From positions 768,001-832,000 of the forward strand of contig CAVWLP010000003.1 in the NCBI GenBank assembly GCA_963755915.1: a DNA stretch of 64,000 nt. Direction: 5' to 3'. Both the position numbers and the translations under genes were made by a program. Below, in pieces: positions 34,801-40,516 of this stretch. This DNA is from an uncultured Phycisphaerales bacterium. GTDB taxonomy: Bacteria; Planctomycetota; Phycisphaerae; Tepidisphaerales; Tepidisphaeraceae. Positions within the stretch are counted from its first letter, which is position 1. Each line of letters opens with the position of its first letter. The notes beneath the pieces were generated by a model. It searched no databases. It was not told the DNA's origin and saw nothing but the letters and a program-made list of their open reading frames with translations.

Positions 34801-35691
34801 TCACGCCGTCTGGCCGGCGGATACCCCCACATCAGAAGACAACGGCGGCTCTGTCACGGTGTCTTCCGGGGGGGAGCACCCTTCATCGCCGGCGGTACTC
34901 CGCCGTCCTTTTGGATTTGTCTTTTCCGGTGTCCCGGATTGGCCTGCCGTGAGCGAAGTCGAATGGCCCCCATGCCGAAGGCGGTAGCTCTTGCCGGTGA
35001 TGTTGATGATCGTGGCGTGCTGCAGGAACCGATCCAGAATGGCCGTGGCCGCCGGCACGTCGCCGATCAGCTTGGCCCAGTCCTCCAGTGGACGGTTGCT
35101 GGTCATCATCGTCGAGCGGTTCTCGTGCCGGCGCATGACGATCTCCAGCAGGCATTCGCCGCTGCGCCGCGGAAGCTGCTTCATTCCCATGTCGTCGATG
35201 ATAAGCAGATCAGGCTTGAGATACCGGGCCAGCGTCTTGTCCTGGGCTCCCAGATCCTCGTCGCCTAAAAAGTCGCGGGCCAGGTCGAAGATGGATCGGT
35301 ACAGGACCACCAAGCCGCTCTTGATCGCCTGGTGTCCGATGGCCTGGGCCAAAAACGATTTGCCCACGCCGGGCGGACCCAGCAAGAGCACGTCACGTTT
35401 GTCACGAATGAACTGGCCGGCGGCCAGATCGTGAATCTGTTTGCGTTTGATGGAGGTGTTGAAGGAGAAGTCGAACTCGTCGAGGTTTTTGGTGTCGCGG
35501 AACATCGCCGCCTTGACGCGCCGGCCGATCTGCCGGCTGGATCGGACGTTCAGTTCATCCTGAAGGATCAGTTCCAAAAACTCACTGTGGTCGAGCCGAT
35601 TGCCGGCCGCCTCGCTCAGGCGAACTTCAAGGCTGCTCGCCAGACCTGAAAGCCGAAGTTGCTTGAGCGTCTGCATCAACGAAGGTCTCAT
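34801..35691 (-). CDS. istB: IS21 helper ATPase
   Basis: GPPGVGKS, LLIIDDMG, TSNR, AILDRFL, GKSYRL. Confidence 0.96.
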   Translation of the reverse strand: MRPSLMQTLKQLRLSGLASSLEVRLSEAAGNRLDHSEFLELILQDELNVRSSRQIGRRVKAAMFRDTKNLDEFDFSFNTSIKRKQIHDLAAGQFIRDKRDVLLLGPPGVGKSFLAQAIGHQAIKSGLVVLYRSIFDLARDFLGDEDLGAQDKTLARYLKPDLLIIDDMGMKQLPRRSGECLLEIVMRRHENRSTMMTSNRPLEDWAKLIGDVPAATAILDRFLQHATIINITGKSYRLRHGGHSTSLTAGQSGTPEKTNPKGRRSTAGDEGCSPPEDTVTEPPLSSDVGVSAGQTA

Positions 35692-37373
35692 GGGGTGGAC
35701 TCCCTTCGGCTCTGCTCAGGGCAGGCCTGTAAAGGTTGTGCGGCAGGCAAAGCCTCCGCTTGGGTGATTGCGTCGCGTACGAACTGTCCGTAATCGGCCA
35801 GTCCGCGGATGATTGGATGTTCCTGAACAAACTCGAAGTGTTGTTGAACCGGCGCGCCGTTTTGGTGTTCGATGAGCTGCCGCAGGGAGCGCAGGTGATA
35901 CGCGCCATGCCCCAGAGCAATCTCGCAGGCTCGTTCCACGGCCGGTCGCGGCTGCTGATTGGCCAGCGACAGCAGCCCCATCAACACGCGCACGCCTTCG
36001 ATGCCGCGATGCTGAAGCATTGACTGCGCCCACTGCGTGGCGTGCGGCCCGATGCATTCGATCCGCTGGAGAAGCCAGGTCGTTCCACGCTCGATGCCGC
36101 TGATCTTCTCCGGCAGGATATGGGCGTCTTGCGTCGAGAACCTGCCCGGCGGACGCTGCGCGTGCAGAGCGATCGCACGCATCTTCTGATCGAACAGCCG
36201 GACCGTGCGCCCGTCCCACCGCGCCCAGACCCGCTGGCCCAAAAACTCCGGCGGGACCGAATAGTACGCCCCCTTGATCTCCACGTGCCCGTCGCGGTGA
36301 ACACTGCGCAACGCCTCGGTGAAAAGATCGAATCGCACCGGCGGCAGAGCCAACAGTGCCGGCTTCTCTACCTGCTCGAAGACTTCCTTCACCTGCCGCC
36401 GCGTCGTGCCGTGGATGCGCGTGTCGGCCACGCTCTTCTCCCACGTCAGCAGATGCGCGTTCTGATCCGAGAGCGAGGCGAATTGCCGGCCTTTGAGAGC
36501 ATTGCTCTTCACATAGCCGATGCCCCGCTCGATCTTCCCCTTGTGCCGCGGCGTGTACGGCTTGGTGGGCAGAATGGCGATTCCATAATGTTCGGCGAAC
36601 GACCGGACCTTGGGACACAACTCCGCCTCGAACCAGTCCGCCCGCGTCACCGCCGCGCGAAGATTGTCGATCACCAGCGCTGACGGCATCCCGCCGAAGT
36701 GCGTAAAGGCATTTTCCAGACAACGCAGAAAATCATCGGTCGTCTGCCGCTCCACCGCCTCGGCGTACCCCTTGCGGCTGTGGCTCAGCACAATGCGGAA
36801 GACCCAGGTTGCTTTGCGTTTGCCGTCAGGACCGACCAGGGGCGCACCCCGGCCGAAGTCCACCTGCCCTCGGCTCCCGGCTCGCATTCCATCCGGCGCA
36901 CGCTGTAATAGCTGCCGGCATAGCCGTGATCGCTGGAGATGTCTTGATAAATCCGCTGGGCCGTCAGCCCGGCTTCCAACTTCTGAACAATGACCTCACG
37001 CCAGGGCGATGCCGTACTGACCGACCCGATGGGCGCGCCGGATAACCCGGTGGGCGCGCTCTCCGAGCCGCCTGCGGCGAGCACCGTCGAGCCGCCTGCG
37101 GCGAGCACCGTCGAGCCGCCTGCGGCGAGCACCGTCGAGCCGCCTGCGGCGAGCACCGTCGAGCCGCCTGCGGCGAGCACCGTCGAGCCGAGGGGCGCGC
37201 TGGCCGGTTTTGAATCCGATCCGGGCACCGCAGGATCGCCGCCCGACAACCGGATGTGGCGTCCAACGGTCTCCCGGTGAACGCCGAGTTGGCGGGCGAT
37301 GTTCCGATTGGACCAGCCGCTGCGCAAGTGCCAAAATTGCTTGTACTTCCGCCATCTTGAGTTGATTGGCCAT
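35688..37373 (-). CDS. istA: IS21 transposase (frameshifts ~37325 and ~36875; 24-nt repeat insertions)
   Basis: N-terminal HTH (IARQLGVHRETV), QVDFG, DNL, KGKIER, RIHGTT. Confidence 0.92.
37070..37189 (+). repeat. 5 perfect tandem copies of the 24-mer GCCTGCGGCGAGCACCGTCGAGCC
   Basis: Direct reading; encodes (GSTVLAAG)5 in istA. Confidence 0.97.
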
Positions 37374-37572
37374 CCCACCATTGGCTTGCGGCAACCGCCG
37401 AAAGCCAAGGTCGATAACCCAATCTCCTGTGCCTCAAAATGGCCGGTTTTGGCGCGCCCTCAATTGGCCGGTTTTGCGCCCCATGACACAGCGCCCCGCC
37501 GCCGAAAGCACCGGAGGTGCTTGGGCGGTACTCCGCGAAACGTGGGCCGGAGGCCGTCCCTAACTTCTCCCC

Positions 37573-37622
37573 GTGTAGCCGCCGTGCTTGACTTCGGTGA
37601 GCTGTCTCGAACCGCACGGCGC
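37573..37622 (+). repeat. GTAG-type REP with a 24-nt element in its loop (37590-37613)
   Basis: GTGTAGC-CGCCGTGC-TT-[GACTTCGGTGAGCTGTCTCGAACC]-GCACGGCG. Confidence 0.85.
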
Positions 37623-37859
37623 TTTCCCGCCAAATACCTCAAGGCCGCCCCCGACCGTCACAAGGCCAGCCAAGTGCCACCGCGGCGGAACCGCGTTTTA
37701 TATTCGAGTCAACGCCTCTTCTCGTCCCCCAAACCATAACCGAAAATACTCTTCCTTCTTTTTACGATGTAAATCCGACCGCTTCGCTCCAATAAATGTG
37801 GGGAATCCCACTCATAAATTCTTCCTCTTTCTTGGCATCTTGGCGTCTTCTATGAGCCG

Positions 37860-38060
37860 AGCCTTGTCAAGGGGCGTTGATCGCTCATGCGGTCGATTGG
37901 GTGAGCCTTCTATTCAGTGCTCTCGCCTGGCGGCGGGCCTATTCAACTGTACAAATGGCCAGCCCTATTCTTAGCGGCAAGCTTTGAAGCTTAAGACGCC
38001 AACCGGGGTCTGGCCTTGCTCATTCAACCTGCACGAACGCGTCAATTCCACTTCACTTCA
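37860..38060 (-). ncRNA. putative bridge/seek RNA of the IS110 element
   Basis: Internal loop with guides matching both halves of the insertion site (37993-38002 and 37970-37977); RNA ends uncertain. Confidence 0.8.
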
Positions 38061-38175
38061 ACTCTACTCAATCCCCTGCACAGAAGACAACGGCTTTCTG
38101 ACACGGTGTCTTCCGGAGGGGAGATACTCCATCGCCTGTACCGACTTGTCGGGACAGTCATCGCCTTTTCGATTT

Positions 38176-39219
38176 TCAAGTGGCCGCCGTCAGCGATCGC
38201 TGGGGTTCTCTCCATCGGGTTCCGTCCCGCAGCATCGCCCACAGCTTCACCAGTAATCTCCTGGCTACCGCAACAATCGCGATCTTCTTGCGCTTCTCGC
38301 TGTCACGTAGAACCCTCTCGTACACGTCCTTCATCCACGTATTGCGATGAACCCCCAGCCACGCCACCTCCACCAGCAACTCCCGCAGCAGCGCGTTGCC
38401 TGCCTTGCTGATCCGCCCCTGGCGATCGCTGTCGCCGCTCTGCCAGCGCCGCGGCGTCAGACCCACGTAACATCCCACCTGACGTGCATTCTTGAATCGC
38501 CTGGGATCATCAATGATCACCGCCACCGCCTCGCTCAGCCGCGGACCAACGCCGGGCACCTCCTGCAATCGTTTCACCGCTTTGTTGGCCTGGCCCAACT
38601 CCTGAAGCTTGCTTTCGACAGTTTCGATCTGCTTCTCCAGGTGCTCCAGTTGCGCCACCTCACAACCGATCTGAAACAGCCACAGATCTTCCGCCGATGC
38701 GGCCGCTGCTTCCTTCCTCATTTCCTCCAGTCGCGCTTTCGTCCACGCCTTGGTCGCCGAGGGCAAATACAAACCCTGCCGCTCGTAGATTGATCGGATC
38801 GAGTTCTTGAGCGCCGTGCGGCGATCCACCAGGCCGTGTCTGTATTCAATCAATGAACGCCACTGCCGAACCGATGCCTTGGGCACGTGCACCGTCGGCA
38901 GCGAATCCATCTCCGACATCGCCGCCATCTTCAGCGCGTCTTTACGATCACTCTTCTCCTTCACCGTCTTCCAGCGCCAGCGTTCATCGTTGCCATTGGC
39001 CACCTGGACGGGAACATTGTTCCGCTCCGCCAGATCACAAACCCATCCTGCCGCCGGACCGGCCTCGATGACCAGTCGATCCGGACGCACCCGCTCGAGT
39101 AGTTTTTGCACCTCGTGGGCATTGGTGCCGATCTTGCCGAACGTTCTTTCTCCACCGCCGGTGACATAATCCACAAAAACGCTCTTGTTCTTTCCCAGGT
39201 CCAAAGCGAGAATTCGCAT
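38176..39219 (-). CDS. IS110-family recombinase/transposase
   Basis: DEDD residues (ALDLG, VIEAG, KSDRKDA), VPGVG, YVGLTP, WQSG catalytic-Ser motif, KIAIVAVARRL. Confidence 0.96.
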   Translation of the reverse strand: MRILALDLGKNKSVFVDYVTGGGERTFGKIGTNAHEVQKLLERVRPDRLVIEAGPAAGWVCDLAERNNVPVQVANGNDERWRWKTVKEKSDRKDALKMAAMSEMDSLPTVHVPKASVRQWRSLIEYRHGLVDRRTALKNSIRSIYERQGLYLPSATKAWTKARLEEMRKEAAAASAEDLWLFQIGCEVAQLEHLEKQIETVESKLQELGQANKAVKRLQEVPGVGPRLSEAVAVIIDDPRRFKNARQVGCYVGLTPRRWQSGDSDRQGRISKAGNALLRELLVEVAWLGVHRNTWMKDVYERVLRDSEKRKKIAIVAVARRLLVKLWAMLRDGTRWREPQRSLTAAT

Positions 39220-39404
39220 TGCCGAGTCCTTTCTCAAAAAAGACGTTTGAGCGACCTACGCGGTACGCTCGTTCATACTTGGGGCATTTTGACCCCGTTC
39301 ACGTCCCGAGAAAGGCTCGGCTTCATAGTTTCTTGGCGGTTATAAGATTTTTAACCGCCAAGACGCCAAGAGCGCAAGAAAGAAGCAGATAAAAAGAAAT
39401 TTAT

Positions 39405-40516
39405 TTAGAGCGTGCGCTTAAACAGCAACGTCGCAAACCCCAACGCCAGCAGCGAAAAAATCGTCAGAAACGCCAGATCCTGCCAGATCGCTATGAGCCC
39501 TGTGTTCTTGAGGATCAGCTCCTTAAACCCATGCACGGCATACGTAAACGGATCGACCACCGCAATGCACTTCATCCAGGTCGGAAACGACTCCTGCGGA
39601 TAAACCGCCCCGCTCGGAAAATACAAAACCGTATTCAGCATCCCGAAAATCGCCCGCGGCACCAGCGGATCGTTCACCCGCACCATGATCAAAAACATCA
39701 TGCTGATCAGCGCCATCGACGTGGCAACCACCAGAATCATCAATTTCAACATGCGGACCGGATTAAGCGGGTCCGGTATACCCGCGATGAGCGAACCGAT
39801 GGTAACCAGAACCAGCCCCGCGATGATCGCCTTGGCAGCCCCCGCAAAGGTGAAACCAAGGATCAGCTCAACCTTGCGGATTGGCGTCACGAGATATCCT
39901 TCGTGCAGCCCGCGCGCCTTATCGTCGATGAAGATGATCCCACCGCCGATCATCGCCGAGACGAAGATCGACAGCGTGATGATCCCCGGCAAAAGGAACT
40001 GGATATACGGCACATACGGATAGACCTCCACGACGTTCAGCGTCGCATCCGCTGTCGTGCGCCAGGCACTTGCGGACCATTGTACGTCTGAAGCATCGAC
40101 CCAATACTCGCTTCCAGGGCATCGGATGAGAACTGGTCCGTGTTATCGACCACCACCGCGATCTGCGGATTGGCGCCCGCCAGGACTTTCCGCGAAAAAT
40201 TGGGCGGAATGTTCAGCACGCCCTGGATCTTCCCATCCCGCAAATCGCGCACCGCCACCGCATTGTCGGAGTAAGGGATGGTGTCGAAAGTCCGGGCATT
40301 CGCCGCGATCGCCTGGCACATCTCCTTGATCTTGATCGCCGGAACCCCGTGGTCCTGGTCCACGACCCCCACCTTCATGTTCTTGATCTTCCCCCCGAAC
40401 GCATACCCCAGCACGATGAGCTGCACCAGCGGCATGATCATCGAGACGATCATCAGCACCGGGCTGGCCTTAAATCGCCGAAGGTCGCGCTCGATGATGG
40501 CCCAGATTCGATGCAT
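39405..40516 (-). CDS. ABC-2 type exporter permease (frameshift ~40050)
   Basis: Multi-TM; FPSGAVYP, PFTYAV. Confidence 0.9.

Follow-up and report, generated by a model that had tools for sequence, protein, structure and literature searches.

What is the function of the folded stretch that follows the transposase gene of this insertion sequence, and does it account for the place where the element sits? In the window, that is the whole analysed stretch of 64,000 nucleotides, an earlier note had read this structure as a guide-RNA loop programmed for the flanking repeat. The structure belongs to an intact element of the IS110 family, IS1111 group (39331-37849, minus strand), with the following parts:

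37849..39331, minus strand: whole IS1111-group insertion sequence, 1483 bp, with ends placed from flank divergence among nine copies of equal length
39332..39333, minus strand: core dinucleotide AG at the left junction; both junctions are AG in 9/9 copies
37847..37848, minus strand: core dinucleotide AG at the right junction; empty sites carry a single AG (CCGCCA-AG-ACGCCAA)
39314..39328, minus strand: left subterminal inverted repeat CTATGAAGCCGAGCC, which apart from one extra A is the reverse complement of its right counterpart
37850..37863, minus strand: right subterminal inverted repeat GGCTCGGCTCATAG, read from the sequence and the copies
38176..39219, minus strand: recombinase (transposase) gene, 347 aa plus stop, with PF01548 and PF02371

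The window's genome harbours nine copies of this element, each of 1483 bp, seven of them identical and two with one substitution each. Comparing the nine copies, we found that the element starts with AAACTATGAAGCCGAGCC... at its left end and finishes with ...GGCTCGGCTCATAGA at its right end. The repeats lie just inside these termini, CTATGA(A)GCCGAGCC starting 3 nt inside the left end and GGCTCGGCTCATAG ending 1 nt inside the right end, and their length falls in the range of 7–17 bp given for subterminal inverted repeats of the IS1111 group in the description by Durrant et al. (PMC11208160). Also, the non-coding sequence is unevenly distributed, with 327 nt located 3' of the gene versus 112 nt located 5', which corresponds to the long downstream region of the group. 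Every feature of the IS1111 group that could be tested was found in this element, and its target loop, described below, conforms to what has been published for seekRNAs.

The recombinase matches PF01548 (E 2.9e-10) and PF02371 (E 2e-24), both above the cut-offs, and has the DEDD (RuvC-like) N-terminal domain of the IS110 family and its IS1111 group. An alignment of the window's protein with five relatives (A1) shows no variation at D7, E52, D91, D94 and S261. The solved transposases of IS621 and ISCro4 can be aligned with the C-terminal half (E 1.3e-16 for the IS621 C-terminal domain). The segment GLTPRRWQSG, which holds S261, aligns with GLTPRRYESG of IS621 and fits the GL-P----S(T)G pattern, a GL-P----SG motif being described for IS1111 transposases by Siddiquee et al. 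(PMC11187229, section 6), while the stretch with D91 and D94 aligns with NKTDTVDA of IS621. From these alignments we infer that the five invariant residues correspond to D11, E60, D102, D105 and S241 of IS621 (PMC11208158). The protein had been said to look intact, which agrees with the conserved DEDD residues and serine motif and with a frame that is open in 9/9 copies. To regard it as a candidate new programmable recombinase seems a reasonable inference from the intact catalytic residues together with the near-identical copies. An Rfam search of 37600-39500 at E up to 1 returned nothing but a sub-threshold match to the archaeal C/D-box RNA sR28 inside the gene end (38188-38239, minus strand), with 18.7 bits against a gathering score of 39 and an E-value of 0.045, and this match most likely arose by chance.

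We found that the nine copies share one 15-bp target, CCGCCA-AG-ACGCCAA, which belongs to an arm of a REP-like palindrome, and that all are inserted in the same orientation relative to this target, so that insertion is both site-specific and orientation-specific, as in the IS1111 group. In all nine, the left flank ends at the junction with ...CCGCCAAG (...TAACCGCCAAG) and the right flank begins with AGACGCCAAG (AGACGCCAAGAG...). Around the copy in the window, the palindrome is divided as follows:

39332..39380, minus strand: upstream part of the REP-like palindrome (left arm, loop and the first part of the right arm, as far as the insertion point), with arms made of CTTGGCG-like units
37826..37848, minus strand: rest of the right arm, downstream of the element, from the sequence and the copy comparison
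39355..39369, plus strand: perfect target CCGCCAAGACGCCAA, empty, on the opposite arm of the occupied palindrome, the same 15-mer as the 22 empty sites

Indeed, the genome contains 22 empty perfect 15-mer targets, compared to 0.012 expected, and all of them are in a palindrome arm. Sites in the neighbouring register, ACGCCAAGAGCGCCAA, occur 19 times in the same genome and host none of the nine copies. Palindromes of this kind typically have three CTTGGCG-like units per arm and follow gene ends, in the window as well as in 22 further places. They offer two adjacent registers, which sister elements use as separate targets.

The structure in question is part of the 327 nt that separate the gene's stop codon from the right end of the element:

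37957..38015, minus strand: target-binding loop of the guide RNA, 59 nt, from its sequence, its fold and the covariation of its outer stem in relatives
37993..38002, minus strand: 5' target guide UUGGCGUCUU, 10/10 complementary in 9/9 copies
37968..37977, minus strand: 3' target guide CCGCUAAGAA, with the sense of the left flank, the core and the first two left-end bases (CCGCCA-AG-AA)

Read from 38015 to 37957, the loop is GGCCAG-A-CCC-C-GGUUGGCGUCUU-AAGCUUCAAAGCUU-GCCGCUAAGAAUA-GGG-CUGGCC, in which the outer stem GGCCAG/CUGGCC is followed by a bulged A, the CCC/GGG pairing, an internal loop and the hairpin AAGCUU-CAA-AGCUU. All the parts described before are there, except that one C after CCC had been dropped. 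The 5' guide pairs with the top strand A-AG-ACGCCAA, which comprises the element's final base (an A, as at an empty site), the core and right-flank sequence. UUGGCGUCUU is the exact complement of the minus-strand AAGACGCCAA (37849-37840), which had been written as the plus-strand TTGGCGTCTT. The 3' guide has the sense of the left flank and core and hence pairs with the bottom strand; CCGCUAAGAA equals the minus-strand CCGCCAAGAA (39339-39330) except for one U in place of C, the U at 37973, which makes a G-U wobble. Both guide matches claimed in the earlier note are thereby borne out, as is its reading of the structure as a target-binding loop located 3' of the recombinase gene, with guides that fit the flanks in 9/9 copies. 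Nor did we find any copy at a site unrelated to the guides. The two matches by which seekRNAs and bridge RNAs are recognised are present here as 10 nt and 10 nt (one wobble), 15 nt apart (the 14-nt hairpin plus one base).

We compared these matches with 20000 mononucleotide shuffles of the 327-nt region. A 10-nt complement such as the 5' guide appeared in 5 of them, a 9-of-10 match such as the 3' guide in 243, and both together in none. Folding of the region, proposed earlier as a check, gave z = -5.43 for 37840-38180 against 100 shuffles, with a minimum-free-energy (MFE) fold that pairs the two target-loop strands with each other. By using RNAalifold on 30 sequences, we found 16 pairs, 14 of which show compensatory changes; in the target loop they lie in the outer stem and at the foot of the hairpin, and further pairs form a second stem system located downstream. 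In relatives, the two bases of the 3' guide beyond the core follow the left end of the element, being AA, or AC where the left end is ACACTATG.

Read along the element itself, the top-strand match is 5' and the bottom-strand match 3'. IS1111 seekRNAs are reported to have this order, and the IS110 type the opposite one (PMC11187229, abstract and section 9). The left/right layout of IS110 guides that had been assigned to this loop thus holds for the presence of the target guides and fails for their order, which is reversed relative to IS110 and IS621; the IS621-like order resulted from writing the target on the opposite strand.

These observations are best explained by an IS1111-group element with a 3' seekRNA or bridge RNA whose target loop (38015-37957) guides insertion into the palindrome arm, a reading to which we give a probability of about 0.93. 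According to it, the top strand of the core and right flank would be read by the 5' strand of the loop. The bottom strand of the left flank and core would be read by the 3' strand, which reaches two bases into the left end. Guided by this pairing, the DEDD/Ser recombinase would place the circularised element at CCGCCA-AG-ACGCCAA, while a second loop downstream would read the joined ends of the element as the donor.

Since the occupied and the empty targets are all in a palindrome arm, the recombinase might instead read the palindrome by protein-DNA or structural contacts, the guide matches being by-products, or, in a weaker form, RNA pairing might be needed with a check of the hairpin adding specificity. 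A description of IS110-family elements that target REP sequences predates the discovery of RNA guidance (PMC1525189), and a preprint on ISPpu10 proposes, in its description, a sequence-plus-structure rule (10.64898/2026.03.19.712850). Against this stands the behaviour of close relatives. Four loci of one Phycisphaerales metagenome-assembled genome (L031-L034) encode a protein 91% identical to the window's, and their left junction reads GACGCCA-AG in 4/4 loci, which is the next unit of the same palindrome. Their right flank carries the guide-matching AGAGCGCCAAG (AGCGCCAAG; flank AGAGCGCCAA) in 3/4 loci, and in the fourth (L033) it reads AGAGCACAAG, with only 5 nt matching its guide. Their 5' guide is UUGGCGCUCU as compared to UUGGCGUCUU in the window, with three guide bases different, while the 3' guide is the same in both elements and fits both registers. 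Hence, recombinases that are 91% identical use different registers of the palindrome, and the difference tracks a 3-nt change in the guide. The same three guide changes are found in a contig of a public run (X20, 208 nt over 37846-38044), the loose end of which reads the flank of that variant. As judged from its sequence, this contig repeats the covariation of guide and flank in another sample, possibly from the same species, and has no bearing on expression.

Among 401 genomes of the phylum that were searched, six others hold more distant relatives (36-51% identity), and so does one Pirellulales genome. We located their loops by anchoring on GAAU(A/G)GGG, and one single-copy relative (L039, 42% identity), whose ends and core were irreconcilable, was left out of all counts. 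The loop architecture is kept at ~116-122 nt from the right end. The guides differ among L035, L038, G043/G300 and G344, and each matches its own flanks. Two variants in G344 differ in the 3' guide and in the left flank together, GCAGUG going with GCAGTG and ACUGUG with ACTGTG. L038 (G396:C40) has an insertion between the guide-RNA loops and the right end, which places its target loop 355 nt from the end compared to ~120. As relatives with unrelated flanks that do not look like REP sequences also have matching guides, recognition of the palindrome alone is very unlikely. We give a low probability to this alternative as a whole, its weaker form, in which a hairpin check would supplement guidance by the target loop, being less strongly contradicted.

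Guidance by the loop also predicts a match between guide and flank across the family. A scan of metagenome contigs gave 80 loci, of which 18 had no gene by the pattern of the script and 11 no inverted-repeat ends, leaving 51. We used the 39 whose ends were strong and whose flanks covered 12 nt on either side, some ends having been placed automatically. First, the non-coding region contained an exact 5'-guide match of at least 8 nt to the element's own right flank in 25/39 relatives, compared to 59/1370 cross-pairings with the flank of another element. Second, the 3' guide had such a match to its own left flank in 21/39, compared to 54/1370. Third, both best matches stood in the canonical order, 15-21 nt apart, in 19/39. 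The best exact match of the 5' guide to its own flank was shorter than 8 nt in 14/39 relatives, wobbles and mismatches being uncounted. Because these were not counted, the test understates the signal; for example L059, a close relative of the window's element, fails for its 3' guide solely because of a wobble. In six loci (L107, L111, L117, L090, L091 and L092) the dinucleotide at the right junction differs from that at the left, and the donor strand follows the left; for the first three, a two-base offset between the crossover point and the placed ends is possible.

That the structure, lying 3' of the gene and having an MFE fold that joins both loop strands, is only a terminator or a hairpin that stabilises the 3' end of the recombinase transcript, or a piece taken from a target whose near-repeats would make some self-similarity expected, has hardly any probability left, since no U-tract follows it, the terminator scan gave one site only, outside the element, and the matching strands are opposite in sense with a hairpin between them and covary with the flanks in dozens of relatives having non-repeat targets.

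For a guide RNA that brings target and donor together, a second loop would be expected, and one is found directly downstream of the target loop:

37900..37956, minus strand: probable donor-binding loop, its 3' strand equal to the right end plus core, with covariation in relatives

It consists of a 5' strand with AGUU (37948-37945), a stem UAG (37941-37939)/CUG (37917-37915), a hairpin and a 3' strand AUAGAAG (37913-37907), with compensatory changes among relatives in both the inner stem and the hairpin. In 48 of 49 elements, which fall into five sequence classes (ATAGA-AG, ATAGG-AG, ATAGA-TG, ATAGA-AA and ATGGA-TG), the 3' strand is identical to the final 5 nt of the right end followed by the core. 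The single miss is L038, in which the insertion mentioned above puts the loop outside the stretch searched. A triplet of the 5' strand covaries with positions 2-4 of the left end: it is GUU where the left end is AAAC, has C at its middle position in 4/4 elements with an AAGC left end, and is GUG in 3/3 elements with an ACAC left end, two of which are copies of one element. The sequence points to this loop as a probable donor-binding loop in the bridge-RNA sense, with a very short 5' guide. Recognition of the donor is only partly explained in this way because the 5' strand pairs with just 3-4 nt of the left end, and the long inverted repeats may carry the remaining recognition of the ends.

How the RNA would be made can be considered from the element and its surroundings:

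37865..37870, minus strand: TTGACA, a -35-like hexamer 16 nt from the right end, with TTGAC invariant in 30/30 aligned relatives

A scan of the integrated copy for sigma-70-like promoters gave no site. By analogy with the literature, the hexamer fits one half of a promoter that would be formed at the junction of a circle. An ABC-2 permease gene lies just upstream on the same strand, which makes read-through a possible source of transcript. Transcription and processing of the RNA, its binding by the recombinase, the circular intermediate and the junction promoter would all follow what has been published for the family. Public runs containing the sequence number 20, all listed as assembled contigs, and we examined four, two of them from RNA libraries. 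The contigs of these four runs gave no joint marking a circle or an empty site. One run (X9) holds a single contig of 205 nt over 38012-38216, with no differences, which ends where the target loop begins; transcription, strand and RNA ends are beyond what contigs can show.

Upstream of the guide RNA, just past the end of the gene, is another conserved structure:

38081..38136, minus strand: conserved hairpin module (GGAAGACA ... UGUCUUC), from conservation in relatives

The module is made of GGAAGACA, a loop of ~17 nt and UGUCUUC, enclosed in an outer CCCCU/AGGGG pairing. It is ~89-100% identical in 7 of 9 matched related elements (with the match spanning most of the module), the proteins of which are 59-91% identical. 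It is also 84-86% identical to a segment that directly follows istB in two families of IS21-like elements in the window's genome (G000 C2 and C3), and occurs in the genome in 9 + 9 + 31 = 49 places. The second family, which was first met through a 58-nt match, proved to be IS21-like and not IS110. The module matched no Rfam family and, among the 401 genomes searched in the phylum, was found in one only, the window's own. It could conceivably be a hitherto undescribed element for processing or for the 3' end, by which the guide RNA is released from the recombinase transcript or stabilised, perhaps with a wider use by mobile elements of the lineage, an idea we regard as tentative and rather unlikely. 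If true, maturation of IS1111 guide RNAs would need a dedicated cis element and not the recombinase alone. An IS21-like element also adjoins the insertion sequence (35688-37408, minus strand). Its istA-like gene, with rve and Mu-transposase C-terminal domains, is split from the N-terminal helix-turn-helix part, which contains five tandem 24-bp repeats (GGSTVLAA) in a stretch whose length varies among the copies in the genome (~552-625 bp aligned).

The element closely resembles ISEc11, ISPa11, ISKpn4 and ISPst6, for which seekRNAs were shown experimentally, a comparison made between their published description (Siddiquee et al. 2024, PMC11187229) and an element known in the window from its sequence alone. 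Shared traits are a DEDD recombinase of ~340 aa with the GL-P----SG motif, subterminal inverted repeats, a long non-coding region 3' of the gene, and two short target matches, the top-strand one 5' of the bottom-strand one. Close relatives have been naturally re-targeted here, as reported for ISEc11 versus ISXne4 (PMC11187229, section 10). Unlike in those four elements, the target is a palindrome of CTTGGCG units, and the host lineage is another one, the closest relatives having been found in Phycisphaerales and Pirellulales metagenome-assembled genomes. With IS621, as described by Durrant et al. 2024 (PMC11208160) and Hiraizumi et al. 2024 (PMC11208158), the element shares a target loop, a probable loop for the joined ends and a 2-nt core that both loops would read, and the post-core bases that match the partner DNA resemble the handshake guides of IS621 (PMC11208158). 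By the same descriptions, it differs from IS621 in having the RNA 3' of the gene (5' in IS621), a reversed order of the loop strands and long inverted repeats, in a donor 5' strand that pairs with only 3-4 nt, and in the core, which is AG in the element's orientation as against CT for IS621 (PMC11208158). ISPpu9 and ISPpu10 of Pseudomonas putida, compared by description, are also REP-targeting members of the IS110 family, in an unrelated host and with an unrelated repeat family (PMC12288879; 10.64898/2026.03.19.712850).

Durrant et al. predict a right-end bridge RNA for 93% of the IS1111 elements catalogued (PMC11208160). As predicted bridge RNAs in most of the group, re-targeting and insertion into REP sequences have already been described, the element is a solid and unsurprising member of a known RNA-guided family, and the known mechanism is unchanged by it. 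With it, Planctomycetota-like bacteria supply a well-documented natural case of RNA-guided insertion. Moreover, the pair of 91%-identical elements, three guide bases and one repeat unit apart, is a ready-made test of the guide's share in specificity, and the relatives with readable guides and flanks could serve the mining of compact programmable recombinases.
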